64,000 nt of DNA from a virus (taxonomy: Duplodnaviria; Caudoviricetes): IMG/VR virus record IMGVR_UViG_2841255697_000002, positions 10,177 to 74,176 of that record; one strand, given 5' to 3'. Shown in pieces: positions 20,900-37,230 of the stretch. The notes under the pieces are model-generated. The model ran no database searches, was not told the DNA's origin, and was given only the letters and a program-made list of their open reading frames with translations. Made by a program: the position numbers and the translations under genes. Within the stretch, counting starts at the first letter, position 1. Every line of letters begins with the position of its first letter.

Positions 20900-21898
20900 A
20901 TGAATGATTTAACAGTTGACAACAGAAATGCGGTTAAGAATGGCAATTTTTGTTATTCTGAAGATTACACGAGAACACTATCGAGCAGTACACGGAAAAT
21001 GTATACGATGGAGATTATGAAGTTCTTCGATGTAGAGAGATTTGAAGAAATAACGGTAGAGCAAATTCAGGCCGTTACACCTGAGTGTGCGAACAGATGG
21101 GTTGAAGAGCTGGCTGAAGACGGAATAAAAAAATCAACAATCAACAAGAAGCTGGCCGCCATGCAAAATTTCTATAAATTCCTTTGCAGAAGAAGCGTCG
21201 GTCTTATGTCCTATAATCCATTTAGCACCGACGAGGGTTGCATAAGGTTCAAAAATACCGCTTCGCAAGCAAAAACAAGATTTCCTCTCGAAGTTGAGGA
21301 TATTGAAAATATGATTGATGCGGTGCCTAAACAATGTAAGACCAAAGCCCAAGAATTAATCTATACAAGAGATAGGCTGATTCTTCAAGTTCTATTTCTT
21401 ACAGGAATGCGGCGTGAAGAGCTGTGTAGACTAAAGGTTGGAGATGTACAAGGATACCAGAGCAAATATGTTGTTTATGTTATTGGCAAAGGAGAGAAGG
21501 GACGACACCTTGAAATTCCAAAGAAGACATTTGAAGGTATTAGTGAGTACCTTGAGATGCGTGGCCTTACCTTTCACAATTTTGATGAGCCATTATTCTC
21601 CAGCCATGCGAGGAATGTTTCGTCAGGAAAACTCTCAGGAGCAACAATTAACCAATTGGTTAAAAAATATGCAGAATTAGCTGGGATAGACCCTGACAGG
21701 GTTTCGCCGCATGTATTCAGACATACATTTTGTACAGAGAGTCTCAGAATCCCTGGCATCACCGAAACTGATGTCCAAGATTTAATGGGACATGCAGACA
21801 TTAGAACATTACGAATTTATGACCATATTGATCGAACCATTGAGCATTCCACAGCGGAAATTTTGGCTGAAAAAATTCATATAGGTAAGTCAAAATAA
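20900..21898 (+). CDS. Tyrosine recombinase (XerC/D-like integrase/resolvase)
   Basis: Complete catalytic set: TGMRREEL, GKG, PHVFRHT, LMGH, RIY. Confidence 0.92.
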   Translation: MNDLTVDNRNAVKNGNFCYSEDYTRTLSSSTRKMYTMEIMKFFDVERFEEITVEQIQAVTPECANRWVEELAEDGIKKSTINKKLAAMQNFYKFLCRRSVGLMSYNPFSTDEGCIRFKNTASQAKTRFPLEVEDIENMIDAVPKQCKTKAQELIYTRDRLILQVLFLTGMRREELCRLKVGDVQGYQSKYVVYVIGKGEKGRHLEIPKKTFEGISEYLEMRGLTFHNFDEPLFSSHARNVSSGKLSGATINQLVKKYAELAGIDPDRVSPHVFRHTFCTESLRIPGITETDVQDLMGHADIRTLRIYDHIDRTIEHSTAEILAEKIHIGKSK

Positions 21899-22220
21899 AA
21901 AATCGCATGAAATGACGCATATTCGAGTTTAATTCAGCAAACCCTAATAAGGTTACCTAAAAAATGATTTCTCGTCAATTAGATACCATTTTGCTCGAAA
22001 AACGACCATTTCGAATGTATGTTTGATGTGCGTTTTCAGGAGTTGCAAGAATTACATAGCAAAATAACGCTATTTATGGAGTGGAGAATAGAGCAGAGAT
22101 CAATTGAGAATATCCAGACAAAAATGACCAAATCAAGGAGATACTTTAGCACATTACATCATTATGGGTAAGCCTTATACCCCTTATTATTATATATTAA
22201 TATATTAATTAATTATATAT

Positions 22221-22365
22221 ATATTTATATATTCACTACGTTCATATATAAATATTTTAGTGGTGTTAAAAATTTAGGGTAATTCATGGAAATATAATTA
22301 AAAACAATAATCCTGTTATATGAGTCCTGGTATAAAGACATTATTCACTGCGTTCATAATGTCTT
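22221..22365. repeat. Two hairpins with near-identical 11-nt loops and unrelated stems
   Basis: ATATTTATATAT-TCACTACGTTC-ATATATAAATAT and AAGACATTAT-TCACTGCGTTC-ATAATGTCTT. Confidence 0.75.
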
Positions 22366-22460
22366 ACTCGCTTTGTTTTCCTGTCGGAAAAGGCAAAGCT
22401 CATAATATAGGCCGACAAGAGAATAATTAGTGTCCAGATAATGATACGAACTCTTAACGT

Positions 22461-22490
22461 AAGATCACCTTCGTGTGGTCTTTTTTTATT
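22461..22490 (+). terminator. Intrinsic terminator
   Basis: AAGATCAC-CTTCGT-GTGGTCTT followed by T run. Confidence 0.55.
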
Positions 22491-22899
22491 GCCTGGAATA
22501 GAATAATCAAATCAATGAACAGGAACAACAGAAAAGGCCAACTGGAGAAATAACGTACAAGGATTGTTTGAATTAGTCAAAATATGAAAAGAGTAACGAT
22601 TAAGTAGGTTTAAGCAAAAAATACTATTATAAGATGAAGTTTTGAAAGAAGAGTATCAGATTAGGTTAAATCAGGTCTGGAATGAAAGATAATTTAGGAG
22701 AAAAGCAATACAATAAAAGTTAACTAAGAGCAGAAATTAAGGGCCAAAAATTTTTTGACGAAAGCTTTGAAAGCCAGTAAAAATATAGGTTGTAGTGTAA
22801 GGTACCCCCGGCCTGGAAAAGAAAGAAAACAATGTTTCATTTTAGTAAACACCTCTGGTAAATCTATAGACAATATTTATACTTTACAGAAGTACTGTT

Positions 22900-23400
22900 C
22901 TATCAATGGTAAAATGAAATTTAACGCATTTGATTATATTTATAAATAAAATTATGTTAAAAGAGAGATTAATTTATTTATTGAATACATATAATAATAT
23001 TCAATATTATATGTATTAATGTAATTACATAATGACAAATAAAGTTGTCAAAATCAATATATTACAAATGTAATATATAATTACATATGTCACATGCTAT
23101 TACACATGTAATACTTGAATAATATTTAATACATATATATTTAATGTGTCATAAAATCCTTAAGTATAACAAATGAGTATAAACGTTATTAATTAACTTG
23201 ATATATATAATATATTACAATTACTTATTGTTGGAATATGACTAATTGCTTTATTAAATTGCATTATTCACTATATTAATAGTAATTATGATATTCTTAA
23301 TATATTTACATATAAGAATATACAATAATACACATATCATAATACATTAAATATAATTAACAATCATATATACTTCACATAACTAAAGCAACCTTTTCTG
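22900..23400. other. Extremely AT-rich non-coding tract with TTACA/TGTAA palindromes (origin or packaging-end candidate)
   Basis: No credible ORF; TGTAATTACA, TATTACAAATGTAATA, TATTACACATGTAATA. Confidence 0.45.
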
Positions 23401-23540
23401 ATCTAAAATTAAAAGCCTTATATCGCTTATTAAAGGCATATAAGGAAGGCTTTATAATAACCGAACATTAGCGAACGTTTTCTTAAATTGCTGAAAACCG
23501 CATAGATAGGGGATTTAAAAGATAAATAAAAAAATAGAAA

Positions 23541-23578
23541 ATAACGTGTTGACATAATGGTTTTTTACGTGCTACAAT
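23541..23578 (+). promoter_or_regulatory. Early promoter with overlapping operator motif ATAACGTGTTG
   Basis: TTGACA(23549)-18-TACAAT with extended TG; A-rich UP element. Confidence 0.7.
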
Positions 23579-23582
23579 ATAG

Positions 23583-24117
23583 ACACCGAAAGGGACAAGC
23601 CCTTGAGAGTGGACAAGCGGGTCCGATGTACAAAAGCCAACGCCAAAAAAAGGCGGTGAAAATTTCTTGACAAAACAAGTAAAAATTATCGGTTAAAGTT
23701 TTCCACATTTCTTAGAAAAAATGTGAGATAGGAAAACCTATTGTGTAATACAGGTTTTAAAAGTGAAGCCCTGTATTAACCCCAAAGCAGTAAACAGCTT
23801 TAACTTTGTATTATGGATAACCAGTACAAAGGCTTAAATAGGACACCTTGAAAAAGGCGGTATTTGACAAATGAATATCTGTATATTGGACGGATTGACA
23901 ACCCGGAAAATATGACAGACAGGGTATTAAGCTAGTATCCTGAATAAAGCACAAAAGTGCAAAGGCCGTTTATACCAACGTAAAAAGGTACACAAAACAA
24001 AAGTTAATCCCATTGTGTAGAGGATTTAAAGAATAGTACACAATGTTTTACCAGTTTTCAAGGCTGGATTCCAAAAACTGGACACCAAAGGGCATTTTTA
24101 AAAGTGTTTTTTGGTGT
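23583..24117 (+). ncRNA. Candidate large structured RNA / leader (~535 nt)
   Basis: At least 10 consecutive hairpins, many with G-U pairs on the plus strand; no ORF with RBS; starts at promoter. Confidence 0.55.
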
Positions 24118-24274
24118 AGGGAAATAACATATTTTTTTACAAAGTTTAAAAGTAACGTGTTGACATTAGAGTTTTTGTCTTTTGGAAAGCAGACAATAAA
24201 GAACTTTATCCGGGTGCAAGGTCTAGTATTCAAAAATCCCCCTGATACTCAAACTATCGAGAGGGGGTGAGAAA

Positions 24275-24391
24275 ATGCTGGATAAGGTTTTAAACTTGTT
24301 GGATAGACTTTTAAAGTTTTTGACAACAAAAAAACGACCTATGATCGCTATTCACATTAGCATTAAGGTCGTTATAATCCGCAAGCGATAA
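24275..24391 (+). CDS. 38-aa cationic/hydrophobic peptide, type I toxin-like
   Basis: MLDKVLNLLDRLLKFLTTKKRPMIAIHISIKVVIIRKR; RBS in hairpin; antisense promoter downstream. Confidence 0.55.
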   Translation: MLDKVLNLLDRLLKFLTTKKRPMIAIHISIKVVIIRKR

Positions 24392-24462
24392 GCTAAAATC
24401 CTTGCACCTTTATTATACCACGTTTGATAAAAAATGCAATATAGAAAGTTGAGGACAACAAA

Positions 24463-24681
24463 ATGAAATGGGAGCTAATACATGAATGGAGTCCCGATGA
24501 TGTAGACCCGACATGCTGGGCTATAGAAATTAACAGTGCAGAATACGGGGATTATATTTGGATAACAGAAATGCCAAAAGGCTATGTGGTTGAATACCGT
24601 GAAGGAGATTCTTGTATAGAAATTATTGCTTTTAAGACGCTTCCAGATGCTCAAGAATGGGTTGGGCATTGGCTGTTTTAA
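24463..24681 (+). CDS. Early hypothetical protein
   Basis: GAGGA RBS, acidic/aromatic small protein. Confidence 0.65.
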   Translation: MKWELIHEWSPDDVDPTCWAIEINSAEYGDYIWITEMPKGYVVEYREGDSCIEIIAFKTLPDAQEWVGHWLF

Positions 24682-24699
24682 AACAAGGGAGAAACCACA

Positions 24700-24879
24700 A
24701 TGAAAAAAGAACGATTAACGAAAATCGAAAAAGAGCAAATTAAAGAATATGCAATTGCACATTCAAACGCGGCATGTGAGTACGCAATTCATGAGAGTTT
24801 AGAGCGTGACGAATGTTTTTATTGGCTGGAATATGTTAGAGCTAATGAAAAGCTATTTAGATATATTGATTCATTATAA
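24700..24879 (+). CDS. Early hypothetical protein (59 aa)
   Basis: Not in track; AAGGGAG RBS, MKKERLTKIEKEQIKEYAIAH... Confidence 0.6.
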   Translation: MKKERLTKIEKEQIKEYAIAHSNAACEYAIHESLERDECFYWLEYVRANEKLFRYIDSL

Positions 24880-24895
24880 AAGGAGAGTAACAAAA

Positions 24896-25183
24896 ATGGA
24901 TGAAAACAGGATGCAGTTTATTTTAAACAAGCTAGAAGAATTTGAATTTACTCTTGATCTGTTGGAGGCGGATATAAAAAGTGTAGGCAAGGTAACACTT
25001 GCTGGTTCCCTTATAGAGGCAAGCAGCATAAACGGGTATGCACTTGCCCTTACAGCGGAAACATACTTATACATAAAACAAAGGGTTCCGTTTTTAGAAG
25101 ACATTAATGGTCGTATTACAGAAGTTGAAATACGTTCTAGACGCTTATGCGGGGCTTTGGCATCGGGGTTAATAGCATGTTAA
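24896..25183 (+). CDS. Early hypothetical protein
   Basis: AGGAG RBS places start at 24896. Confidence 0.6.
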   Translation: MDENRMQFILNKLEEFEFTLDLLEADIKSVGKVTLAGSLIEASSINGYALALTAETYLYIKQRVPFLEDINGRITEVEIRSRRLCGALASGLIAC

Positions 25184-25257
25184 CGTTTGCACAAGGTTTT
25201 ATTTCTGGTATAGCGGCATTGTATGCGGTATGGCTATTTAAAGAAGCCTACAAATAA
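25177..25257 (+). CDS. 26-aa membrane peptide
   Basis: MLTFAQGFISGIAALYAVWLFKEAYK; GGGG RBS. Confidence 0.45.
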   Translation: MLTFAQGFISGIAALYAVWLFKEAYK

Positions 25258-25385
25258 AAAGAAGCCTCTAACGATTGCGGCGGTAGAGGCTGAGTGTAAC
25301 GGCACGGCCAAAACAAGAAAAAAGGCCATATGTTACAAGAAAATAATAACATATGGCCTCTAAAAAGGAAAGAGGTTAATAAAAA

Positions 25386-25901
25386 ATGAAGAGAGAAAAA
25401 ATAAGAGAACAAGAAAACTGGATTTTAGAGCGTGAAGAAAAATATCGGTATATGCTGTTATCTCGTATGCAAATGGATTGCGAATATTTTCTAGGGTATG
25501 GGAATAGATATGAAGGCCACTTATGGGCCTTAAAAGTAGAGGATCAGATTCATTACATGCGATTTATATTAAATTCATTCAGTGATGATGAAAAACCGGA
25601 CTGGATAACAGCGGAACAGATAGATCAATTTGAGAAAGAGATGTTAGCAGGTGAGAGAATACGGGACACCTTTTACCATAATCGAGGCGATGAGGCTTGC
25701 TATAAGGACTGTTTCGGCTATTTGGGTTATATGACCGCAGATAGCGTTAAAAAAATAAAAGAGAAAAAAGAGGCTTATGAAAAAGAGCTAGGCACTGAAT
25801 ATGACCTGTATAACAGCGATAACCAGTATAAAGAAGGCTATATTGAATCGGCCGAAAGGTTGATCACGTATTATAAAGAATGCACTTCAGAGGAGGCGTA
25901 A
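25386..25901 (+). CDS. LPD11 (large polyvalent protein domain 11) protein
   Basis: YMLLSRMQMDCEYFLGYGNR...LWA...QI..M...EKPDWIT.EQI..FEKEM. Confidence 0.8.
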   Translation: MKREKIREQENWILEREEKYRYMLLSRMQMDCEYFLGYGNRYEGHLWALKVEDQIHYMRFILNSFSDDEKPDWITAEQIDQFEKEMLAGERIRDTFYHNRGDEACYKDCFGYLGYMTADSVKKIKEKKEAYEKELGTEYDLYNSDNQYKEGYIESAERLITYYKECTSEEA

Positions 25902-25903
25902 AA

Positions 25904-26305
25904 ATGAAGTCATATTTACAACATGCTGGATACCTTGAAATCAAGAATTTTATCGGTAAACAACACGATTGGCGGGGTTATATCTGGTATCCAGAAATTG
26001 TGACAAAAACAGATGATTCATTGGTAATCTGTTTGAATACCGATGAATATTCCCATAATTTTGAAGATTCATTATATGTACTCTATGAAGCCTTAATGGA
26101 AAAAGATGTTTATCTTGAGTCTGAATCCGGTAGAGATTGGCTAATTGACTACAATAGAGGTCAACTTGTTTATGGGTTTATAACCTATTGTGATCCTATG
26201 AGGGAATTATGGGAAATGCTAATAGACGAAGGTGGATTTATATCATTTGAATATTGGACTAAAGAAGAAAGTGAAGAAATTATTGATGGTTTGAAATATG
26301 AATAA
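25904..26305 (+). CDS. Early hypothetical protein
   Basis: AGGAGG RBS then ATG 25904. Confidence 0.6.
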   Translation: MKSYLQHAGYLEIKNFIGKQHDWRGYIWYPEIVTKTDDSLVICLNTDEYSHNFEDSLYVLYEALMEKDVYLESESGRDWLIDYNRGQLVYGFITYCDPMRELWEMLIDEGGFISFEYWTKEESEEIIDGLKYE

Positions 26306-26384
26306 GTGTCAATTTTCCGGTATTCCAAAGAGTGCCGGAACATGGGCATTTACCCCAAAAGCGACTAAGAAAGAAGGAAGTGTG

Positions 26385-26477
26385 ATGGATTTTATAACTG
26401 GATTCATGTTTTGTCTTGGTGTTGAATATTTAGTTTGGATTGTTAGAGAAATTAATAAATGTGAGGTGGAGAAATGA
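26385..26477 (+). CDS. 30-aa membrane peptide
   Basis: MDFITGFMFCLGVEYLVWIVREINKCEVEK; stop overlaps ardA start (ATGA). Confidence 0.5.
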   Translation: MDFITGFMFCLGVEYLVWIVREINKCEVEK

Positions 26478-27001
26478 TTGAATTAAGAGGATATTTAACG
26501 AATCTCGAAAAATATAACGAGGGTGAATTGATAGGAGAATGGGTAACATTCCCAATTGACGAGGACGAACAAGACGAGATTTTTAAGAGAATAGGCATAA
26601 AGAATGAATATGGAGAATATTTCCTTGAATATTTCTTTACTGATTATGAATGTGATGTTCCCAGTGTATGTGATGATCTGGCGGAGTATTCCAGTATTGA
26701 TAATTTTAATGACTTAGCTGAAGCTTTAGAAAGTGTTGATGATGAGGACTTGTTAGCGGCTGCTATAGAACTCGGCGGGTATGATGTCATGGATATTATA
26801 GAAAACATCGACGATTACTCGTTACGTACAGATATAAATAACGATTATGACTTAGGTTATGAGTATATAGTTGAAGGCTGTGCTTTGGATACTCCAGATT
26901 ATCTTGAAAATTACATTGATTATGAGGCGTTTGGGCGTGACTTAAGAATGGACTTATACGGTGCTTTTACGGACTGGGGATGGGTGGAAAGAGTAGGATA
27001 A
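26474..27001 (+). CDS. ardA: Antirestriction protein ArdA (DNA mimic)
   Basis: TNLEKYNEGELIGEWVTFP, EYFFTDYE, YIDYEAFGRDL; very acidic. Confidence 0.9.
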   Translation: MIELRGYLTNLEKYNEGELIGEWVTFPIDEDEQDEIFKRIGIKNEYGEYFLEYFFTDYECDVPSVCDDLAEYSSIDNFNDLAEALESVDDEDLLAAAIELGGYDVMDIIENIDDYSLRTDINNDYDLGYEYIVEGCALDTPDYLENYIDYEAFGRDLRMDLYGAFTDWGWVERVG

Positions 27002-27013
27002 GGAGATCAAGTC

Positions 27014-27295
27014 ATGATAACAATAGAAGTATCAAAATATAACGTGGATGTATATGATACCGATTTTGAGCGGAATGGATACAAATACTATGCAATAAGA
27101 ATAACTGAGTTTAACGGGAATGACAAAGAAATAGGCAATAACCTAGTCTATGTGATAGATTTTCCCAATAATGACACCATTGAAAAAATCAAACGTTACT
27201 GCGTTGATATTGATAATATTGATTATTTAATGTTACTGCCTAAAAATACAACAATAAAGTTAGTAGATCGAATATACGCAAAAATTGTTTATTAA
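27014..27295 (+). CDS. Early hypothetical protein
   Basis: AAGGAG RBS. Confidence 0.6.
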   Translation: MITIEVSKYNVDVYDTDFERNGYKYYAIRITEFNGNDKEIGNNLVYVIDFPNNDTIEKIKRYCVDIDNIDYLMLLPKNTTIKLVDRIYAKIVY

Positions 27296-27370
27296 TGCGT
27301 TTTAGATGAGGGCTTTGCGGAGCCTTCTCTAAAGGGTATTGTCCTAAATTAAGGAAAGAAGGGGAAGGTA

Positions 27371-27925
27371 ATGAAATTTCAAACGAATACTGACATATTG
27401 AAGTTACTAGATGCTGGATTGTATGAAAGTTATTTAGGTAGAATCGTATATGGTGAAGATAAACTTGAAAAGGTTGAGCAAAATCTAAAGGTAGTCGAAA
27501 ATGAAGCATTAAGACTTTTAAATGAGTTATTTCTAGAATTACCGTTTAAAGCCGTTTTAAGTAATCCACAATATTGGCATCCTAAATTCTACAACTATGA
27601 AACTGACTGTATTTTGTTCGATATAGAAGTGGACGAAAATTTCCTCGACAAGTATGTGAGCGAAAGACTGGATTATCGGTTTTATAACTTTATTTTTCAA
27701 CATTACTGTTCATATGATGGATTTCTTAGTTTTTATCCATATACCAAAGAAGAATTCCATAATGTTTTTAAAAGCGAACATAAGTATAAATGCGTCAATC
27801 AAGTTATTACTTACTACATTGCCTGTGAAGTTTGGGAGAGTAAAGATATTACGGCAGCGTATCAGTTTGACAATCTGCAATGGGATTTCATAGAAAATGT
27901 GTATGAAAAAATAGAATTCATTTAG
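27371..27925 (+). CDS. Early hypothetical protein
   Basis: PKFYNYETD and SYDGFLSFY motifs seen in phage early proteins. Confidence 0.65.
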   Translation: MKFQTNTDILKLLDAGLYESYLGRIVYGEDKLEKVEQNLKVVENEALRLLNELFLELPFKAVLSNPQYWHPKFYNYETDCILFDIEVDENFLDKYVSERLDYRFYNFIFQHYCSYDGFLSFYPYTKEEFHNVFKSEHKYKCVNQVITYYIACEVWESKDITAAYQFDNLQWDFIENVYEKIEFI

Positions 27926-27936
27926 GAGGTCAAATC

Positions 27937-28179
27937 ATGAAAGAAGCAGTAGAAAGAACAATTAAAGTGCCTGTTTTATGGATGATGTATGGAGAAATAG
28001 AGCTGGACATTCAAGTTGATGAAAATGCAGATGAAGAGGAGATTTTAGACAAAGTTTTCAATGAGTTTTATGATCATTATAAGGATATTCCTTTGCCTGA
28101 AGGTTATTATTTAGAGGATTCTTTCGAACTAAACATAGATGAAGAGAATGCTGACTTTTTAGAATTTTATAACAAATAA
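27937..28179 (+). CDS. Small acidic hypothetical protein
   Basis: AGGAGG RBS; IPLPEGYYLEDSFE. Confidence 0.65.
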   Translation: MKEAVERTIKVPVLWMMYGEIELDIQVDENADEEEILDKVFNEFYDHYKDIPLPEGYYLEDSFELNIDEENADFLEFYNK

Positions 28180-28312
28180 AATAGCCGCCAATAAGGAGCA
28201 CCGGCGGCCAACAAATCACTGAACGAACAATACAAAAGCGACTAAGTAAGGAGTCAGTGACCTGTAAACCTATTATAACAGGCCGCTTTGATAAAAACAA
28301 GGAGAGAAAAAA

Positions 28313-29023
28313 ATGGAATGTGCATTAATTGAAAGATATATTGAAGATGGATATAACCCCTGTGGACTTGACGGTGAGCCTGTGCCAATGATTTTCAACA
28401 AATTGGCCTATCCTGGAGAAATTCAGGAGGTTGTTACAGATGAGGTTGTGATTTTTGATAAACAAGACTACCTGGAAGTCCAGAAACGGTGTGAAACGGA
28501 AGATGTTTTAGATTTAATGAAAGAATTCGGGGAGTTATTTTATGAGTACGACGATTTGTTTTTAGACAATGTAAATCAAGATGATGTGATTTTTTACATA
28601 GGAGAATGGGCTGATCCAATATCTGATATTGTCACGAATGACTTCATAGCAAAAGAAGATTTGAATACACATGATTACCTTAGATATTGGAGTGATGGTC
28701 ATTGGGAAACACAATGGATTGAGGGCAGGACCGATCTTGAAGTTGAAACAGATTATTTTAATCTGGATCGCTGGAACGGCAGTAATAAGGAGTTTCATAG
28801 TGTTGGACATCATGCGCGAGTATATCGGATTCAAACAATTGACGGTGAACCTGTTAAAAATAAGTACCTCGTAGAACTTTGGAGCCAATGGCAAGGGGAA
28901 GAACTGAGCGATGGCTGTATTATGAATGAAGAAGAACTGCACCAATACTTTACAATAAATTTTAGAGACTATGAGCAAGAATGGCAGGAATTTTTAGAAT
29001 TTGATTGCCAGGGGGAAGTTTGA
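28313..29023 (+). CDS. Acidic hypothetical protein
   Basis: AAGGAG RBS; WSQWQG motif. Confidence 0.65.
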   Translation: MECALIERYIEDGYNPCGLDGEPVPMIFNKLAYPGEIQEVVTDEVVIFDKQDYLEVQKRCETEDVLDLMKEFGELFYEYDDLFLDNVNQDDVIFYIGEWADPISDIVTNDFIAKEDLNTHDYLRYWSDGHWETQWIEGRTDLEVETDYFNLDRWNGSNKEFHSVGHHARVYRIQTIDGEPVKNKYLVELWSQWQGEELSDGCIMNEEELHQYFTINFRDYEQEWQEFLEFDCQGEV

Positions 29024-29080
29024 TGTTGGTTGCAATTGTAATAGTGATTATTTGCTTAATACTGTTGGGAGGATAAATAA

Positions 29081-29251
29081 ATGATTAAATGTAAGGATAC
29101 GGCTTGTGCCTTTAATACATCTGGTGGAACCATGTGTTGTATTGAATGTGATCTTAGAGAGAATTGTACAAGTTTTTGTGGGGTTGCTGAAGAAGATGAA
29201 TGGCAAAATTGTGAGTATGCAATAGATATTGATAAAATTCAGTATGATTAA
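29081..29251 (+). CDS. Cys-rich small protein (56 aa)
   Basis: Not in track; GGAGG RBS; MIKCKDTACAF...CCIECDLRENCTSFC. Confidence 0.55.
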   Translation: MIKCKDTACAFNTSGGTMCCIECDLRENCTSFCGVAEEDEWQNCEYAIDIDKIQYD

Positions 29252-29389
29252 ATAATAGCTGCCCTATCGGCTATACGGGGATGCCTAACAATATGACCAA
29301 ATTGTAGAGTTCAAATTAGGAGGTGGTTAAATTGGTCTAATAGGCAATTCCATATTGTTTACCTCTTAGCCGGGGAAACCCGGTTTTAA

Positions 29390-29459
29390 CATCGGTTAGC
29401 TCAAGGCCGGTAGAGCAGACTGTAAAGTCAAGATAATGGTTCAAATCCATTACCGATGA
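29390..29459 (+). ncRNA. tRNA-like RNA with shortened anticodon arm (Tyr-like, GTA)
   Basis: Perfect acceptor CATCGGT/ACCGATG, D arm GCTC/GAGC, T arm AATGG-TTCAAAT-CCATT; anticodon arm only GAC-TGTAAA-GTC. Confidence 0.7.
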
Positions 29460-29517
29460 TCATTATGCCCGGTGTACTTACCATCCCGAAAATCTGGGAG
29501 TTGATATCAAGGGCAAA

Positions 29518-29685
29518 ATAATTGTGTTAAGAGAACTTTTATACTGTGCACAGGTAAAAGTCATGCGAACCTACACTGCATTAGGCTGTAAGGAGATAAG
29601 GCATATAGCACGCAGTTTGATCACCTGCAAAATTTTGGATATAAGTCAGATGCGATCCAGAAAATAGAGCACTTAACACAATTAT
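29518..29685 (+). ncRNA. Unassigned structured RNA (168 nt, multibranch)
   Basis: 14-bp closing helix ATAATTGTGTTAAG/CTTAACACAATTAT enclosing four hairpins. Confidence 0.55.
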
Positions 29686-29702
29686 ATTCATTATGGCAAC
29701 TT

Positions 29703-29778
29703 GGAGACTTAACTCAGCGGTTAGAGTGGGGAGCTTATATCTCTCTGGTCGGGGGTTCAAATCCCTCAGTCTCTACCA
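29703..29778 (+). tRNA. tRNA-Ile (anticodon UAU)
   Basis: Cloverleaf GGAGACT/AGTCTCT, anticodon arm GGGAG-CTTATAT-CTCTC, T loop TTCAAAT, encoded CCA. Confidence 0.88.
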
Positions 29779-29779
29779 T

Positions 29780-29824
29780 GGCGATGATAGGTCTATTCAT
29801 TCGGTTCGAGTCCGAACATCGCCG
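29780..29824 (+). ncRNA. tRNA minihelix-like RNA (acceptor stem + T arm only)
   Basis: GGCGATG-13 nt-TTCGG-TTCGAGT-CCGAA-CATCGCC-G. Confidence 0.65.
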
Positions 29825-29832
29825 CAATCTGA

Positions 29833-29978
29833 GAACAAGCTGTTTAGTCAAGGAAAGAGCTTGGGAGATTCCACTGGTTTGTGCATTGTACCAAAACTTG
29901 ACTAGGGAAACCGAAAGAAAAATGCACCTTTCTTTCAAACCTGTTCGGCGGTCAGGACAAAACCGCCAAAACTAAACA
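29833..29978 (+). ncRNA. Structured, pseudoknotted element in the rtcB 5' leader
   Basis: Helices TAGTCAAG/CTTGACTA, GAAAGAAA/TTTCTTTC, GGCGGT/ACCGCC; complementary loops GTGCATT/AATGCAC. Confidence 0.5.
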
Positions 29979-29990
29979 TAGGAGACAATA

Positions 29991-31196
29991 ATGTTAGAGA
30001 TCAAAGGCAAATACAACACTGCCAAAATATTTACAGAAAATATTGAAGATGAAGCTAAAAAACAGATAATGACTTTATGCGATCAAAAGTTCACTCAAGA
30101 TTCTAAAATTAGAATTATGCCAGATGTTCATGCAGGGGCGGGTTGCACCATAGGGACAACGATGACCATTAAAGACAAAGTTGTTCCAAATCTTGTTGGA
30201 GTCGATATAGGCTGTGGGATGGAAGTAGTGCAGCTACTCAATAAAGAAATTGATTTTAAGAAACTTGACAATGTTATTAGAGAGAACATACCCTTTGGTT
30301 TTCACGTAAGAACGAAGGCGTTAGAAGGCGCAATGATGATGAGGAAATCCATTAACGAACTAAAATGTGTGGATGAAGCAAATTTAAACGTTGATAGGGC
30401 TTTACAAAGCATTGGGACACTAGGTGGAGGAAATCACTTTATCGAGATTGACCAGGACGATGAAGGAATTCTATATTTAGTAATCCATTCAGGCAGTAGA
30501 CATCTTGGGGTAGAAGTAGCAAAGTATTATCAGAATTTAGCATATCGTTTATTGGATAATACCAGAGTTAAAAAACAAGAAATCATTAATGCTGCAATCG
30601 CAGAAGGATGTGAACAAGAGATTGAAAAACGTCTCAAAGTGTTTCAATCCTCATATGAGCGGATGCCGAAAGAATTATCATATCTTGAGAATCAATCTTA
30701 CCTAGATTATTTGATGGATATGATAATTGTACAGAAATATGCCGACATAAACAGAAAAATGATTTCGGAACAGATTATCAAGAAAATGGATTTGGAAGTT
30801 CAAGAAAGTTTTTCTACCATTCACAATTATATTGACATAGATATGATGATTCTGCGCAAGGGAGCCGTATCAGCAAAAAAGGGAGAAAAGCTTCTTATCC
30901 CAATGAACATGCGCGATGGCAGTTTGATATGTATTGGAAAGGGCAATCCAGAATGGAATTTCTCAGCACCGCATGGAGCTGGGCGGTTATTTTCAAGAAG
31001 TCAGGCGAAAAGGCGATTTTCAGTGGAAGTGTTTAAAGAAGAAATGTCAAATGTATACTCTACAACTGTTTCTGAGATGACACTTGATGAAAGCCCAATG
31101 GCCTACAAACCAATGGAGGAAATCATAAAAAATATAAAAGAAACTGCGGATGTCAAAAAAGTTATTAAGCCGGTATACAATTTTAAGGCAGATTAA
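29991..31196 (+). CDS. rtcB: RNA 2',3'-cyclic phosphate/5'-OH ligase RtcB
   Basis: MPDVHAG, GVDIGCG, GTLGGGNHFIE, IHSGSR, HNY, RKGA, SAPHGAGR, DESPMAYK. Confidence 0.95.
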   Translation: MLEIKGKYNTAKIFTENIEDEAKKQIMTLCDQKFTQDSKIRIMPDVHAGAGCTIGTTMTIKDKVVPNLVGVDIGCGMEVVQLLNKEIDFKKLDNVIRENIPFGFHVRTKALEGAMMMRKSINELKCVDEANLNVDRALQSIGTLGGGNHFIEIDQDDEGILYLVIHSGSRHLGVEVAKYYQNLAYRLLDNTRVKKQEIINAAIAEGCEQEIEKRLKVFQSSYERMPKELSYLENQSYLDYLMDMIIVQKYADINRKMISEQIIKKMDLEVQESFSTIHNYIDIDMMILRKGAVSAKKGEKLLIPMNMRDGSLICIGKGNPEWNFSAPHGAGRLFSRSQAKRRFSVEVFKEEMSNVYSTTVSEMTLDESPMAYKPMEEIIKNIKETADVKKVIKPVYNFKAD

Positions 31197-31214
31197 GGCA
31201 TTTTATTGCCTTAA

Positions 31215-31290
31215 GGGGGTATCGCCAAGTCGGTAAGGCACAGGATTTTGATTCCTGAATACACCGGTTCGATTCCGGTTACCCCTTCCA
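31215..31290 (+). tRNA. tRNA-Gln (UUG)
   Basis: Cloverleaf, CAGGA-TTTTGAT-TCCTG anticodon arm, encoded CCA. Confidence 0.9.
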
Positions 31291-31295
31291 ATTTT

Positions 31296-31371
31296 ATAGG
31301 TGTAGTTCAAGCGGCAGAACAACAGTCTCCAAAACTGTAAGATGTAGGTTCAAATCCTACTACCTATGCCA
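31296..31371 (+). tRNA. tRNA-Trp (CCA)
   Basis: Cloverleaf, ACAGT-CTCCAAA-ACTGT anticodon arm, encoded CCA. Confidence 0.9.
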
Positions 31372-31530
31372 ATATTTACAAGGAGAAAGGGATGATGGAC
31401 ACTACAGATAAATTAATAATGCTCGATGACCAACTTTCGGACTGTGAAAGGTATAGTCCAGAGTGGTACGAAATTGAAGCTTTGGTAAATGATGCGTATA
31501 TAGAATTGCTTGGAGGTGATTAAATAGAAG

Positions 31531-31902
31531 ATGACAATTTCAGAATATATAGACGAACACAATCAATACGATGTGTTCATGTTGGTTGATCAAAACCTGG
31601 AGGTGAAATTTTACGTTTATGTAGGGTGTGATGGAGATACAAGTATCGAGAAACTGGTAAATTATTTTAAAGAAAATATTGAATTAGATCACGCTGAAGA
31701 CGATGAAATCTTTATTGATTTTGAAAGCTATGTGTCTGAGAATAAAAGTCACCTTTTGCGGATTCGTGCTCAAGAAAGAGAGTCCGATCAAAAATATGCA
31801 AAAGGTATTGCGGAAATTATAGAATCCGCAATGACAGGTTATGTCTCAGAACAAACAGCGAAAAAAGTATTAATCATTTTAGAAACGGAGGAAGAAGAAT
31901 AA
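31531..31902 (+). CDS. Hypothetical protein
   Basis: Intact ORF in operon. Confidence 0.6.
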   Translation: MTISEYIDEHNQYDVFMLVDQNLEVKFYVYVGCDGDTSIEKLVNYFKENIELDHAEDDEIFIDFESYVSENKSHLLRIRAQERESDQKYAKGIAEIIESAMTGYVSEQTAKKVLIILETEEEE

Positions 31903-33075
31903 GTGCTACTTAAGAAAAAATATTTGAAAGAGAATGTTGCGGTATGGTGTGATACAAAAGAACAGGCAAAAGTCTTGTTAGCCGAATTAGAAAAATTGGA
32001 TTATGAGTGGACAACTGGTGATAAACCAACTGGTCATACCAATTTCGTTGAAGAAGGAATACGGTATTTTATTAAGACAAACAAAGACCTGACTTATTGC
32101 AACAGAAAAGATTTCCGGTCTGACGATACAGATGCATACATTGGCTTCATGGAAATTATAAAGTCAATTACCAAAAAAGAGAGAGGGATTCTTGAAAAAG
32201 CCCGATCAGATGGATATGCCTTTATTTCGAGAGACAAGTTAGATTTATTGTATTTATCAGACAGAAAACCAGAAAAACGATCTGAAGTATGGTTTTGTGA
32301 TTTTCCTGCAAATTGGAAGAAGTTGAGCACAAATTTATTTAAAATGGTCAAATGGGAGGATTATAAACCCAAAAAGGTAAGTGAATTATTACAATACTAT
32401 ACAGAACCAGAAGCGGTGATTTTTGAAGTTGGAGACTATGTTGAAAGCACTATTCATGGAAAAACTGAAAGAGGGACAATTGTTAAAACTGGAGATAAAA
32501 TTTTTCTCGTCAATTTTGGTCCGAAGTTTAGTGGACATAGTGGAAGCCTCGATGGTACTTTTTACGTGGACACCTTATGGAACTGCCCTAAAGAAGACCT
32601 GAAATTGATTAGCAAAAATAGATCACCTAAAAATGGCGATACTGTGTTTTGCGTCAATAGCGAAGCAGCTGAATGTAATTATAGTGACGGTCTTAAGTAT
32701 AGCAAAGTAATTGAAAAAGGCAGAAACTCTTGTTATGATATGGAAATTGAAATATTAGACCATAAAGATGGTGATTTTATTAAACAAAATGATGTTGTCA
32801 AATCAGAAGGATTTGTAGTAATGCAAGGGATGACAGAAGATGATATAAGACCAGTCGTTGCTCTTGAGCCTGGCGATCTGGTAACTGGCAATGATCGAAA
32901 TAGTTATGGTTATACTACAAAGGGAGAGTTAATGGAAGTCATGGAGGTTGACAGTAGTTTATCTTGTGACTTAAAGGTCAAAATGATCTCTGGAACAACA
33001 TCAGGACAATTATTTCCGGTTGAATCAAAGTATTTTACAAAAGTGGATCCAGAGAAAATTAAGGTAGCTGCATGA
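31903..33075 (+). CDS. Multidomain hypothetical protein with repeated SH3/KOW-like modules
   Basis: Repeated FEVGDYV / KNGDTV / EPGDLV starts. Confidence 0.6.
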   Translation: MLLKKKYLKENVAVWCDTKEQAKVLLAELEKLDYEWTTGDKPTGHTNFVEEGIRYFIKTNKDLTYCNRKDFRSDDTDAYIGFMEIIKSITKKERGILEKARSDGYAFISRDKLDLLYLSDRKPEKRSEVWFCDFPANWKKLSTNLFKMVKWEDYKPKKVSELLQYYTEPEAVIFEVGDYVESTIHGKTERGTIVKTGDKIFLVNFGPKFSGHSGSLDGTFYVDTLWNCPKEDLKLISKNRSPKNGDTVFCVNSEAAECNYSDGLKYSKVIEKGRNSCYDMEIEILDHKDGDFIKQNDVVKSEGFVVMQGMTEDDIRPVVALEPGDLVTGNDRNSYGYTTKGELMEVMEVDSSLSCDLKVKMISGTTSGQLFPVESKYFTKVDPEKIKVAA

Positions 33076-33227
33076 CAAAAAATGATGAAATAACTGAATT
33101 GAACAATCTGCTTCAACCATTAGTTCCCTGGATTGAAAAATATCTGCACCCATATAAGTATATTGTGATTAGTAAAGATAGTGTGCGTGTTATATCAGAT
33201 GATTATGGTATGACGTTGGAAGAGTAG

Positions 33228-33425
33228 GTGATTAAAATAAAAACAGAAAGCCACACCCCTGATATTTTTGCTGAAACAATTATCGATATACAAAACAGAT
33301 TAGTCAGACTTGAGAGAATAGAGCTTACTAATAAATTTTACCTAGAAACGCTTTTAGGGATTGAATATGAGACTAATGATAATAGCGGCGATGGAACAGA
33401 TAGTGCCGATAGAAGTAAGAACTAA
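33228..33425 (+). CDS. Small hypothetical protein
   Basis: AGGTGA RBS; start uncertain (possibly ATA 33237). Confidence 0.45.
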   Translation: MIKIKTESHTPDIFAETIIDIQNRLVRLERIELTNKFYLETLLGIEYETNDNSGDGTDSADRSKN

Positions 33426-33608
33426 TATGGCAATATTAATTTTTCGATCTTTCTTTGACGAGGATTTTATTTCATTAATAGAAACAATTAGTTCCTCTTG
33501 CTTTGAATTGAGATCGTCAACTTGTCTTTTGTAAACAGTCTTGTCGTAAGGGATGGTTTCAAATTCAAGATATTTCTTGTCAATTTTAGGAGAGGGGATT
33601 GTATTCAT
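33354..33608 (-). CDS. Counter-oriented membrane-anchored protein
   Basis: C-terminal TM helix; own RBS and TGTTATAAT -10 at 33636-33644. Confidence 0.65.
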   Translation of the reverse strand: MNTIPSPKIDKKYLEFETIPYDKTVYKRQVDDLNSKQEELIVSINEIKSSSKKDRKINIAILVLTSIGTICSIAAIIISLIFNP

Positions 33609-33674
33609 AATGGTATTCCTTTAGTTTTTACTATTATTATAACATATTTTAAGAAAGTAGGTGATTAAAAACAA

Positions 33675-34667
33675 ATGAGAAAAAATACGATTGGAAAATT
33701 AGAAGGTTACAAAGATGTCATTAAAGCGAAAGATCTTAAAGATATTCTAGATATAAATTTAGGTAAGGTTTATCAGTTATTAAATTCTGGAGAGATCAAA
33801 GCAAAGAAAGATGACACGGGTTATTGGATTATACGCAAACAATCTGTGGCAGAATATTTAGACAGGATTGAAGAAACAACGAATACAAACATAAACAGCT
33901 CTGATTTAATCAATATTCGAGATCGACAAGGTCAAATGGTTGTCAGCAGCCGGGAGGTGGCACAGAATTTTGGAAAACGTCATGATCATATTTTAAGAGA
34001 CGTTAAAAATATGATGAAAAATGACTCACCCCAAAATTGGGGACAGTATTTCATTACATCAGAATATAAAGATTTAAGCGGGAAGTCCAATAGAGAGTAC
34101 CTTTGTACCCGGGACGGTTTCACATTATTAGCAATGGGATTTACCGGGCAGAAAGCTATCGAGTGGAAGATCAAATACATCGACGCATTCAATAAGATGG
34201 AGCAAACTATCAATGAACAAGGGATTGTGCTGCCAAAAGATTTTTCTTCAGCATGTCGGATGTTAGCTGATCAATTTGAAGAAAACCAACGATTAAACGA
34301 ACAAGTTCTGGAAATGAAACCGAAAACAGAATACCTAGACACACTGCTAAAAACCGATAATCTTTTAACGGTGACAACCATTGCCAAAGCCTATGGTATG
34401 TCCGCAGAAGCATTTAATCAACTCTTACATAGTCTTGGTATCCAATGGAGATATAAAGGCAGAAATCAAAAGTGGCATCTTTACCAGGAATATACGAATG
34501 AAGGTTATGCTTATGAACAATGGTATATTGATCCTGAGACAAATGATAAACATTATAGCGGTTTAAAATGGACAAACAAAGGCGTTAAATTCTTATACGA
34601 GCTATTAAATGAGAATGGTATTCAGCCATTAGTTGAGATGAAACCAGAATTTGGATTGGTATCATAG
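33675..34667 (+). CDS. Antirepressor: excisionase-like HTH + Rha + KilAC/ANT domains
   Basis: SSREVAQNFGKRHDHILRD, TRDGFTLLAMGFTGQKA, TVTTIAKAYGMSA, WTNKG. Confidence 0.88.
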   Translation: MRKNTIGKLEGYKDVIKAKDLKDILDINLGKVYQLLNSGEIKAKKDDTGYWIIRKQSVAEYLDRIEETTNTNINSSDLINIRDRQGQMVVSSREVAQNFGKRHDHILRDVKNMMKNDSPQNWGQYFITSEYKDLSGKSNREYLCTRDGFTLLAMGFTGQKAIEWKIKYIDAFNKMEQTINEQGIVLPKDFSSACRMLADQFEENQRLNEQVLEMKPKTEYLDTLLKTDNLLTVTTIAKAYGMSAEAFNQLLHSLGIQWRYKGRNQKWHLYQEYTNEGYAYEQWYIDPETNDKHYSGLKWTNKGVKFLYELLNENGIQPLVEMKPEFGLVS

Positions 34668-34691
34668 AAAGGAGAACGACAATGGATGTGA

Positions 34692-35066
34692 TCAACCAAA
34701 CTCTATTTTAATACCATCAATCTCGATATCATCATAAAACGATGTACTATAATATTCTTTTTTTAATTTTTCAAAACAAAACTGAACACGTTTATCACGG
34801 TGTGGGTTATTATGGTTTTTACATTCTATTTCAAACATTTTGAAGGCAAAAAATAAATACTTAGATTCAAGTTCTTCAAGTTGAGTGATATTTGACAACT
34901 TCATAGATTTAATAGTTTTGAGTTTTAATAGCATATTGTCGATGGAATCAAGATACTCGTAAATATTTTTTGAATCAAGTAATATTGACCAACGTGCACT
35001 ACTAGCATCGCTCATTGCCCCAAAGAATAAATCTGCCATTAGTTTTGAAAAATCATTATAATCCAA
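34692..35066 (-). CDS. Counter-oriented hypothetical protein
   Basis: AAGGAG RBS, TTG start, TATAAT at 35112-35117 on minus strand. Confidence 0.6.
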   Translation of the reverse strand: MDYNDFSKLMADLFFGAMSDASSARWSILLDSKNIYEYLDSIDNMLLKLKTIKSMKLSNITQLEELESKYLFFAFKMFEIECKNHNNPHRDKRVQFCFEKLKKEYYSTSFYDDIEIDGIKIEFG

Positions 35067-35163
35067 TGTTTAAGCTCCTTTAGAAAAAAGTTAATACATT
35101 ATTTTATATTAATTATACAACAAAGAATAATAAACAACAATATTAAAAAGGTAGGTAGTAAAA

Positions 35164-35994
35164 ATTAATGAATTAAAAATATTTGAAAAAGAAGAATTCG
35201 GTCAAGTAAGATGTATGGAAATTGACAGTGAACCTTGGTTTGTTGGTAAAGATGTGGCAGAAGCGCTTGGCTACGAAAAGCCGACAGACAGCGTTAGAAA
35301 ACGAGTTGATGAGGAAGATAGAGGTATCTCCAAAATGGAGACCCCTTCGGGCATTCAAAATATGACGATCATCAATGAATCCGGTCTTTATAGTCTAATC
35401 CTGTCCAGCAAGCTCCCATCAGCCAAACAATTCAAACGCTGGGTGACAAGCGAAGTACTCCCAGAACTTAGAAAAACAGGGGGCTATAGTATTCAGAACT
35501 TAACAGGACTTTCACCAGAGACAGTAGCATTAATGAAAGCAACTGAAGCGCTCGTGATGATTGAAAAAAAGCAAAATGAGCTGGAATCGAAAGTCGACAA
35601 TACCAACCAAAGAATTGATAGTATCTCAGACCTCATTGTATTGAGTCCAAAGAACTGGAGAATCGAAAGTGAAAAGATTATTATGATGATTGCAGAAGCA
35701 AGAGGTGGAACACAATACATTGCTGTGACAAGAAAAGAGATTTACAATGCAATGGACCAAAGGTTAGGGAAAAGACTTTTTGACAGATTGAAACGTCGTC
35801 GCAGAAGAATGAGAATAAATGGAGCAACAGAAACAGCTATCAAGAGACTAAGCATTCTCGACATTATTGAAACATCCGATGATAGTAAAACCCTGATTGA
35901 AGGTTATCTTTTCATCCTTAAAGAAACTGCAATTAAATATGGGGTCGATAAAGTTATTATTGAAAATAAACCAGGATTAACTTTGGTTTCATAG
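35164..35994 (+). CDS. BRO-N family antirepressor, probable ATT start
   Basis: (I/M)NELKIFEKEEFGQVR...PWFVGKDVAEALGY...INESGLYSLILSSKLPSAKQFKRWVTSEVLP. Confidence 0.88.
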   Translation: MNELKIFEKEEFGQVRCMEIDSEPWFVGKDVAEALGYEKPTDSVRKRVDEEDRGISKMETPSGIQNMTIINESGLYSLILSSKLPSAKQFKRWVTSEVLPELRKTGGYSIQNLTGLSPETVALMKATEALVMIEKKQNELESKVDNTNQRIDSISDLIVLSPKNWRIESEKIIMMIAEARGGTQYIAVTRKEIYNAMDQRLGKRLFDRLKRRRRRMRINGATETAIKRLSILDIIETSDDSKTLIEGYLFILKETAIKYGVDKVIIENKPGLTLVS

Positions 35995-36052
35995 AGAGGA
36001 GAATTCCAATGGAGAATAAAACTTAACAGCAAGTTCAGTGATCGCATTATGC

Positions 36053-36081
36053 TTGACCTGAATTGCAACATGTTATATAAT
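36053..36081 (+). promoter_or_regulatory. SigA-type promoter containing an operator-like motif
   Basis: TTGACC-17-TATAAT; CAACATGTTAT in spacer. Confidence 0.7.
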
Positions 36082-36115
36082 GTAGTATAATAATAGTTTC
36101 ATGAGAGGTTGAGAT

Positions 36116-37087
36116 ATGAAGAAAAGTGATTGCAAAACTTGGAATGAATACATAAAAGATTTTTCTGAAAATATAGATGTCAAAGCGACAACTATAGGAG
36201 GTTATGTTCGAGGAATAAAGGATTTCGCGAAATACTATTATAACGTATCTTTATTTGATGAAATAATGGATCAACCGTTTAAAATGTTCACACGAAACGA
36301 TTTTATTAAAGCACGTGAGCATATGATAGAGGAAGATCTTTCTGCATCCAAAATTAATAGTGCGCATTCTGCACTAACAAAGTTTGGTGAGTATCTACAA
36401 AAATATGGTTATGAATCGCCAAACCTTCAAGGTTTACGCTATTCAAAAGTAGAAGTAGAAGAAAAAGAAGATCAATATTTTCATATAACTGAAATTTATG
36501 ATATTGCCAATTCTGCGGAGAAGGCACTTGACAATGCGTGTATTCGTATGTGTTTTGAAGGTGCATTAGAAAGAAGATATTTATGCAAAATAAAAGAAAC
36601 TGATTTTGATTTTAATAAAAAGATGCTACGAGTTTATAATTATGATACAAAGTCAATTGAGAGGTACTGTTATTTTTCTGATGAAACAATGGATATAATT
36701 CTAAAAGCTTTCTCGGATATGCATCAATTAATGGATAGAATTAATGAAAATAAATTAAAAGCCAATCAAGAAGTAACCAGAATACAGCCCTTTTTATTTC
36801 AAACAGATAGCGTAATTGAACCAGAATATAGTTCTGTAAATCGATCTATTAAAAGAACTGCCGAAAAATATTGTGATAAATTAGGTTTAAATAAAGAGAA
36901 ACGTAAAGAAATGATAAGTCGTATCACTGCATCTAATATTATTGCGAGCAGAAGGATATATTTGTTTTCATTGTGCTCTGATGTCTATAAAGTCATGGCT
37001 GAAACGGGAGGAACGAACTATAGAACAGTATCGAGATATAAGAAATATGCTCCAGTGTACTATCCAGAGACGTTAATTGTACGATGA
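36116..37087 (+). CDS. Catalytically degenerate tyrosine-recombinase-fold protein (MrpR/YopR-like repressor candidate)
   Basis: SAM-like N-terminus and integrase architecture; catalytic R, HxxR and H replaced (EGALERRYL, ITASNIIASR, ETGGTN). Confidence 0.65.
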   Translation: MKKSDCKTWNEYIKDFSENIDVKATTIGGYVRGIKDFAKYYYNVSLFDEIMDQPFKMFTRNDFIKAREHMIEEDLSASKINSAHSALTKFGEYLQKYGYESPNLQGLRYSKVEVEEKEDQYFHITEIYDIANSAEKALDNACIRMCFEGALERRYLCKIKETDFDFNKKMLRVYNYDTKSIERYCYFSDETMDIILKAFSDMHQLMDRINENKLKANQEVTRIQPFLFQTDSVIEPEYSSVNRSIKRTAEKYCDKLGLNKEKRKEMISRITASNIIASRRIYLFSLCSDVYKVMAETGGTNYRTVSRYKKYAPVYYPETLIVR

Positions 37088-37102
37088 AAATTCCGCAGGA
37101 AT

Positions 37103-37193: not shown

Positions 37194-37230
37194 TTATGGG
37201 CTTGTTTACAAAACGGGGGAGGTGAGAGCC

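Follow-up and report, generated by a model that had tools for sequence, protein, structure and literature searches.

What is made from the long gene-free stretch behind an early promoter of a tailed phage, and what would such a molecule do? The question is raised by positions 23583-24117 of a 64,000-nucleotide (nt) stretch of viral DNA (the window; bases 10177-74176 of a virus record of 74,176 bases, a provirus by its classification and with completeness rated at 49%). An initial annotation, made from the letters alone, took these positions for a structured non-coding leader downstream of the main early promoter, and proposed either a new large non-coding RNA (ncRNA) or a processive antitermination leader. 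Part of that proposal stands, as there is a real untranslated, + strand-biased and highly folded RNA region of ~0.55 kb (0.69 kb to the first open reading frame, ORF) behind a near-consensus promoter, termed P1, and it has no match in Rfam; the antitermination half is not supported. Long folded leaders recur behind early promoters of phages, but those of Gram-positive phages are, to our knowledge, almost unstudied, and the locus offers a clean case in which a near-consensus promoter and the lack of coding potential coincide with the best-folding stretch of 64 kb, a clear strand bias, and anti-restriction-type genes downstream.

An untranslated and folded region behind promoter P1

P1 scores 11 of 12 with an extended -10 element (TG), lies behind an A-rich stretch and is the top site in 21800-25500; from its spacing, transcription would be expected to start at ~23583-23585. 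Between the predicted start at ~23583 and the ATG at 24275, ~690 nt carry no plausible ORF. The longest frame behind any Shine-Dalgarno (SD)-like word of 4-5 nt up to 24275 is 24 amino acids (aa), the starts of such frames are all TTG or GTG, and a 75-aa ATG frame (24043-24270) has no SD. The description of a non-coding leader that follows the early promoter and holds no SD-led ORF is thus confirmed, whereas the 3' limit of 24117 proved too short, as the folded untranslated stretch continues until the ORF begins at 24275; the segment 24118-24420 also folds strongly, with a z-score of -4.6 on the + strand (80 shuffles). The word AAAAAGGCGGT followed by TTG was considered as the SD and start of mini-ORFs of 9 and 23 aa and was rejected, the spacing being inconsistent and the SD core interrupted. 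TTGACA occurs six times on the + strand within 23549-24325, with a -10 hexamer behind the first alone; the others were rejected as tandem promoters, having none at 16-18 nt.

The comparison with dinucleotide shuffles, which had been named beforehand as one means of challenging the leader, was run and the leader passes it. On the + strand, 23583-24135 has a minimum free energy (MFE) of -149.1 kcal/mol against -112.3 ± 5.8 for the shuffles (z -6.32, reached by 0 of 100), while the - strand gives z -4.18. Perfect 7-bp hairpin seeds number 16, against 2.9 ± 2.5 in dinucleotide shuffles, a single one of 500 reaching 16. For a background within the same DNA, 230 positions were folded on both strands (460 folds of 553 nt) and the MFE was regressed on G+C. 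The lowest GC-corrected residual among the 460 windows belongs to 23823-24375 on the + strand (-3.07 sd), and the leader's own stretch, at -2.56 sd, would rank third. The leader region is therefore the best-folding part of the 64 kb, by a moderate margin over background.

Excess folding is also unevenly shared between the strands. When the parts of the leader are scored separately (80 shuffles each; Table 1), three of the four clearly favour the + strand, and 23 of the 168 pairs in the MFE structure are G-U. This strand bias and these G-U pairs are as expected of an RNA read from the + strand, and they argue against a purely DNA-level element. A single-stranded DNA promoter of the kind found in plasmid leading regions was rejected on similar grounds, as the RNA-sense strand folds better and depends on G-U pairs to do so.

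Architecture of the fold and the search for relatives

All seven helices and both repeated words listed in the initial annotation were recovered at their places, two of the helices needing G-U pairs (Table 1). The leader opens with a hairpin in a segment whose 34 nt at 23592-23625 reach 65% G+C, against 36% for the whole stretch. Within Domain 1, hairpins form at 23704-23725, 23727-23742, 23746-23778 and 23806-23829; the closing helix of Domain 2 encloses hairpins at 23920-23942 and 23949-23960 and is followed by a 9-bp hairpin at 24011-24045. The terminal hairpin of Domain 3 has four G-U pairs and a UUAA loop. Directly 3' of it stands AGGGAAAUAAC and not a U-tract, the hairpin is not called as a terminator, and no + strand terminator of the kind that an intrinsically terminated small RNA gene would carry is listed in 23583-24645; read-through into the 38-aa ORF at 24275 and beyond is therefore expected.

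The two ends of the predicted RNA are related. The last hairpin has as its 5' arm (GACACCAAAGG) a repeat of the RNA's first 11-12 nt (GACACCGAAAGG), and therefore the 5' end can pair with that hairpin's 3' arm, forming 11 bp with a duplex energy of -14.6 kcal/mol. A fold forced into this end-closed form lies only 2.4 kcal/mol above the MFE (-146.4 vs -148.8), so that the competition of the 5' end for the last stem's 3' strand, as first suggested, is energetically sound. The underlying motif, GACACC..AAAGG, has three matches in the window against 0.13 expected, and none of 100 shuffles reaches three. An arrangement of two tandem-duplicated modules of 250 nt was rejected, with a local score of 28 vs 26 ± 4.8.

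A further repeat, of 39 nt, brackets the promoter, the RNA and the terminal hairpin as a 611-bp unit. Its second copy has no -10 hexamer at 16-18 nt, the nearest candidate being GACAAT 24 nt past TTGACA, and is not listed as a promoter; therefore, the downstream genes seem dependent on read-through from P1 or on a promoter at 24351. The word TAACGTGTTGACAT within the repeat is exact at 23542 and 24153 and recurs with two mismatches at 38266. At these same three places, all on the + strand and always intergenic, TAACGTGTTGA is followed 7 nt later by GTTTT, the copy at 38266 being the looser one, and only the first has a -10 hexamer. This word may mark where a phage regulator acts, or may serve as a recombination linker that joins modules.

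Table 1. Position, strand and composition of the leader, its parts and the neighbouring features; z, folding score of leader sub-domains on each strand
Feature	Position	Strand	Description	z (+)	z (-)
39-nt repeat, copy 1	23527-23565	+	A-rich upstream part, TAACGTGTTGACAT, first P1 spacer bases		
Promoter P1	23549-23578	+	TTGACA, 18-nt spacer, TG-n-TACAAT		
5'-terminal hairpin	23583-23615	+	AAGGG/CCCUU, flanking CAC/GUG, in GC-rich 5' segment; opens with GACACCGAAAGG	-3.1	-1.0
Domain 1	23616-23893	+	multi-branch; 12-bp long-range closing helix 23621-23632/23880-23891, pair probability 0.95	-5.3	-4.5
Domain 2	23892-24046	+	8-bp closing helix 23892-23899/24003-24010, pair probability 0.66	-5.3	-1.6
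Domain 3	24047-24121	+	hairpin 24051-24081 and 16-bp terminal hairpin 24082-24117	-3.95	-1.9
Repeated word	23647, 23851		AAAAAGGCGGT		
Repeated word	23667, 23864		TTGACAAA		
Helix	23698 / 23731		GTTTTCC / GGAAAAC		
Helix	23747 / 23770		AATACAGG / CCTGTATT		
Helix	23804 / 23823		CTTTGTATT / AGTACAAAG; G-U pairs needed		
Helix	23920 / 23934		CAGGGTATT / AGTATCCTG; G-U pairs needed		
Helix	24011 / 24037		CATTGTGTA / TACACAATG		
Helix	24051 / 24074		CCAGTTTT / AAAACTGG		
Terminal stem, 16 bp	24082-24117		pair probability 0.96; -16.9 kcal/mol		
39-nt repeat, copy 2	24138-24176	+	77% identity to copy 1, spacing 611		
Rest of untranslated stretch	24177-24274	+	CCCCC 24238-24242 pairs with GGGGG 24263-24267, covering SD of next ORF		
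First SD-led ORF, 38 aa	24275-24391	+	neighbour of the leader, not part of it; no Pfam family		
Structural and packaging genes	286-20353	-			
Tyrosine integrase	20900-21898	+			
LPD11-domain protein	25386-25901	+	in + strand gene run		
ArdA-like anti-restriction protein	26474-27001	+	in + strand gene run		
tRNA matches (four)	29390-29459, 29703-29778, 31215-31290, 31296-31371		near RtcB		
drum RNA (Rfam RF02958)	29826-29930	+	53.1 bits against gathering score 43		
RtcB	29991-31196	+	RNA ligase gene		

The failure of the initial annotation to match the leader to any known RNA is confirmed by covariance-model search. At gathering score, the models of Rfam 15 give five matches in the window (four tRNA and one drum RNA), none of them in 23583-24275. 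At E <= 10, the six matches in 22000-24500 score 8-20 bits (E 2.5-8.1), where the gathering scores are 45-113. This negative covers ROOL, GOLLD, OLE, HEARO, raiA, EAR, DicF, riboswitches, the T-box and leader families.

Nor were sequence relatives found. A sensitive blastn of the leader against 50,697 phage records gave none at E <= 1e-5; at E <= 10 there were 23 records, of which the best had E 2 and none covered more than 7% of the query. Plasmid records gave no match at E <= 0.01. Among 401 sampled genomes of one class, 13 held only matches of 31-86 nt with E >= 5.5e-5, and 399 scored genomes of another class held none. Scans of IMG/VR viral contigs with single proteins (integrase, a 125-aa ORF, TerL, and the 72-aa ORF at 24463-24681) and of metagenome contigs with integrase and TerL returned no relative, and DNA motif scans of viral contigs returned chance matches only. 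In a scan of genome contigs with an integrase alignment, the best 80 of 571 relatives all had an identity of at most 34%, the patterns being generic XerC/D motifs. With nhmmer, the leader matched nothing in 192 loci (1.85 Mb) nor in 14 further loci. As judged by these sequence searches, the leader is an orphan in all collections reached. Sampled words of 23300-24700 occur at fractions of 0.06-0.16 in four RNA runs of one study and 0.20-0.41 in DNA metagenome runs (the latter share would correspond to ~95-97% identity), which is no evidence of expression or habitat.

The phage lineage itself is thinly sampled: its exact integrase sequence is present on 16 contigs (the longest of 4.74 Mb), and identity drops to 53% at the next relative. 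Among named phages, Clostridium phage Amboise is nearest; its TerL is 49.8% identical and it has no similarity to the leader, and the other TerL relatives are mostly phages of Bacillus and Lactococcus; the host is therefore treated as a probable member of the Bacillota. An alignment of TerL from this phage and Amboise led to four true relatives at 51-62% identity (L203-L206), in which no DNA similar to the leader was found. Two of them (L203 and L205) end before the position of the leader, L206, which resembles Amboise, carries repressor-like genes at that position, and only L204 (TerL 61%) reaches the corresponding place. The early region is mosaic among relatives. In L204, as in this phage, the integrase is followed by a (TA)n-rich stretch that contains an integrase-arm-like word, then by a terminator and by a conserved element made of GTACCCCCG and TTTTAGTAAAC; after these come two strong promoters, ~510 nt free of ORFs that end in a long hairpin, and the first gene. 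This L204 leader folds at z -2.86.

Candidate functions of the leader

The favoured reading, held at somewhat less than an even chance, is that of a cis-acting, highly folded 5' leader that would protect, and be processed from, the first early transcript upstream of anti-defence-type genes. Host RNA polymerase would start at P1 (~23583) and make ~690 nt before the first ribosome-binding site, the leader forming the 5' end of the first rightward early transcript in a tailed phage of Gram-positive (Bacillota-type) hosts. The RNA would fold while being made into the 5'-terminal hairpin, two closed multi-branch domains and the 16-bp terminal hairpin. Acting in cis, the 5' hairpin and the compact domains could shield ribosome-free RNA from 5'-end-dependent and single-strand-specific nucleases, and the same shielding may guard against termination that needs naked RNA. 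The terminal hairpin would serve as a processing site for a double-strand nuclease of RNase III type, separating the leader from the downstream mRNAs and possibly releasing a stable RNA. In favour of this reading count P1, the lack of SD-led frames, the G-U pairs and the + strand folding that runs on past the terminal hairpin, the expected read-through, the like layout of L204 and the type of the genes downstream.

This reading is placed first by analogy. The early leader of T7 follows promoters A1-A3 and has an RNase III site before gene 0.3, and the early RNAs of Bacillus phage SP82 are processed by RNase III. As in those phages, several hundred untranslated nt lie behind the strongest host-type early promoter, a long hairpin precedes the first early genes, and these genes include anti-restriction functions. 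The present case differs in that only one of six TTGACA words has a -10, in that processing would have to be assumed, and in the lack of any sequence relation to T7 or SP82.

Several points weigh against it. The leader holds its top rank in the genome background by no wide margin (-2.6 to -3.1 sd), and a leader that served stability only would not need a long-range architecture of 0.5 kb. The flanking 39-nt repeat and the near-isoenergetic pairing of the ends fit a self-contained RNA gene at least as well. In the collections searched no homologue was found, which leaves no covariation to draw on. The leader of L204 shares no sequence with it (five common 9-mers vs 4.5 expected; local score 21 vs 22 ± 2.3) and the early genes of L204 are unrelated, which makes the parallel one analogous case and not a homologue. 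Because the leader is an orphan, what goes beyond a real, structured and untranslated RNA region is a matter of inference; this applies to where the transcript begins and ends, to its processing and to a stabilising role.

A stand-alone gene for a large trans-acting ncRNA is the next candidate, and an unlikely one. The 611-bp unit would be a cassette for an abundant RNA with pairing ends, for example an early decoy or sponge of a host or phage factor. The repeat of a promoter half on either side gives the unit the look of a module set before an older promoter, GACACC..AAAGG opens both the RNA and its last hairpin, the helix closing the RNA end to end costs little energy, the two closed domains have high pair probabilities, and the whole stands upstream of anti-defence-type genes. 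With ROOL and GOLLD it would have in common the 0.5-kb scale, the multi-domain form and a phage that carries tRNAs; it differs from them in that their Rfam 15 covariance models give nothing on the leader, at gathering score or at E <= 10. Against such a gene stand the missing terminator after the terminal hairpin, the apparent dependence of the downstream genes on P1 or the promoter at 24351, and the lack of an Rfam match or of relatives in the collections searched. No complementary target was found in the rest of the record, where the best E-value is 0.5, and an antisense target elsewhere in the phage was rejected on this result.

A bolder form of this idea, less probable still, is that the unit encodes, as a gene complete in itself, a phage RNA of a new class, ~0.5 kb long, two-domain and end-closing, which would be the first molecule made on entry, ahead of an anti-defence island. 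It might act as a polymerase-riding antiterminator with no need of a ConAn1-type protein, or as a decoy disarming a host nuclease or sensor, and would be the sole representative of its class only because the lineage is barely sampled.

It is rather improbable that the stretch acts at the level of DNA and is free of ORFs by chance; it would then belong to a replication origin, serve as a signal for packaging or injection, or carry a field of sites for binding proteins. It adjoins 1.6 kb of ORF-free DNA with an attP-like stretch, a conserved element and AT-rich palindromes, TTGACA occurs six times (once with a -10) and TAACGTGTTGA three times, and the corresponding region of L204 (~4400-4330, - strand) has, before its promoters and unlike this phage, three perfect DnaA boxes (TTATCCACA or its complement). 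The excess of + strand folding in three of four sub-domains and the share of G-U pairs are not expected of DNA hairpins, and a near-consensus promoter upstream reads into the stretch. DnaA boxes form no cluster at the leader: with at most one mismatch, the window has 19 matches against 21.7 expected, and an origin of that kind at the leader was rejected.

Improbable, too, is processive antitermination in cis, as exerted by conAn2, put or EAR, in which the nascent RNA would stay with its polymerase and terminators would be ignored across the early operon. HK022 put consists of two specific stem-loops directly after the promoter, which bind RNA polymerase. Like put and the Bacillus EAR, the leader would be a cis-acting RNA right after a promoter; it differs from both in that no similarity was detected and no evident terminators have to be overcome here, and put and EAR are much smaller (PMC8191782). 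conAn2 is a poorly conserved RNA of 260-600 nt that lies close to the beginning of the long conjugation operons carried by Gram-positive plasmids; it has stem-loops and a GC-rich patch, and its partner is the protein ConAn1 (PF17362), which is encoded just upstream (PMC8191782). The leader's size, its position near the start of a long operon and its GC-rich 5' patch fit this description of conAn2 (PMC8191782), all of them being generic. Both are large, poorly conserved, structured untranslated RNAs of a long one-strand operon in a Bacillota mobile element, with ArdA-type and polyvalent-domain genes nearby; the operon of this phage runs for more than 20 kb on one strand.

The conAn RNA follows the protein gene on a conjugative plasmid, whereas in this phage the RNA comes directly after the promoter and nothing is coded between P1 and the leader. 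A six-frame search of the 74,176-base record for ConAn1 (PF17362) gave no match at E <= 1; as the record is 49% complete, a copy elsewhere in the phage is possible. Internal terminators are read through in conAn operons, and no evident set of them exists here: a strict-consensus scan of 24000-43900 shows only two weak terminator-like places on the + strand (24646 and 43816, in three rows), and therefore nothing obvious in the next 20 kb needs read-through. The resemblance to a Firmicutes boxA that the initial annotation had pointed out was not confirmed. With the B. subtilis consensus AUGAUCUUUGAAA (PMC13753749) and at most three mismatches, the window has 80 matches (65 ± 8 expected), of which none lies in 23583-24275 on either strand. 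Since neither boxA nor a ConAn1 gene was found, terminators are few, and no Rfam family matches the leader at E <= 10, the proposal of a processive antitermination leader is left unsupported.

That the stretch is a functionless spacer, a decayed gene remnant or recombination filler with incidental hairpins, is suggested by its orphan sequence and the mosaic early region, and is most improbable given z -6.3, the top rank among 460 windows, the lack of internal duplication at the local score reported above, and a tblastn with stop-to-stop frames of at least 30 aa from the corresponding regions of four relatives, which gave nothing below E 0.017 and led to the rejection of a decayed repressor or cro remnant.

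What follows depends on which reading applies. If the leader is a discrete RNA or an antiterminator, an RNA player would be added to the first minutes of infection, and conAn-like control would be extended from plasmids to phages. As a leader with no more than a stabilising role it would be ordinary biology, yet a useful part for expression constructs.

Surroundings of the leader

The first 10 kb of the record hold tail and lysis genes and no host genes. After the integrase gene come ~2.4 kb without a credible ORF and then a run of genes on the + strand that extends for more than 20 kb (Table 1). As judged from their predicted products, the genes downstream of the leader (LPD11, ArdA-like, and RtcB with tRNAs) have the character of first-expressed, anti-defence genes.

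Three non-coding features occupy the DNA between the integrase gene and P1. Just after the integrase gene, at 22170-22400, TATTCACTACGTTCATA and TATTCACTGCGTTCATA adjoin a (TA)n-rich stretch; near-identical words stand at the corresponding place in Amboise (L002 6800-6870), and a looser one in L204 (~5160-5130, - strand). This is probably attP with its integrase arm sites, intact despite the classing of the record as a provirus. The conserved element consists of GTACCCCCG, 28-30 nt and TTTTAGTAAAC, and is common to three phages whose flanks are otherwise unalignable, lying at 22803-22852 in the window, at ~4640-4590 (- strand) in L204 and at 215-166 (- strand) in L205. A scan of all IMG/VR for it gave matches only in the two contigs of these relatives; candidates for its nature are a cos or packaging site and a small RNA. 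The third feature, 22960-23400, has 20-22% G+C and many palindromes of the type TTACA-n-TGTAA, such as TATTACAAATGTAATA and TATTACACATGTAATA, and resembles a field of operators or iterons, or else an unwinding region. It lies directly upstream of P1, and once composition is allowed for, only one fold in the window is more stable than that of its - strand.

On the other side of the leader, the 38-aa ORF is enclosed by a long-range helix of 9-10 bp, in which GGGTGCAAGG (24212-24221) pairs with CCTTGCACC (24400-24408). The layout of 24212-24408 recalls type I toxin-antitoxin loci, but the peptide is without a clear membrane helix or family. A terminator-like site on the - strand (24349-24333) lies inside this ORF. 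The product of 24463-24681 (+ strand), of 72 aa, has a confident model in the ESM Atlas (pTM, the model's own score, 0.65), whose nearest structural neighbours are Bacillota and viral clusters, the weaker rows being of polyvalent-protein (LPD5) type; these similarities between predicted structures are leads only. Look-ups of the 38-aa and 72-aa products in the ESM Atlas gave no named family. Of the tRNA matches, the one at 29390-29459 (43.5 bits) is without an ARAGORN call. The drum RNA is placed between the phage tRNA genes and the RtcB gene, 5.7 kb downstream of the leader.

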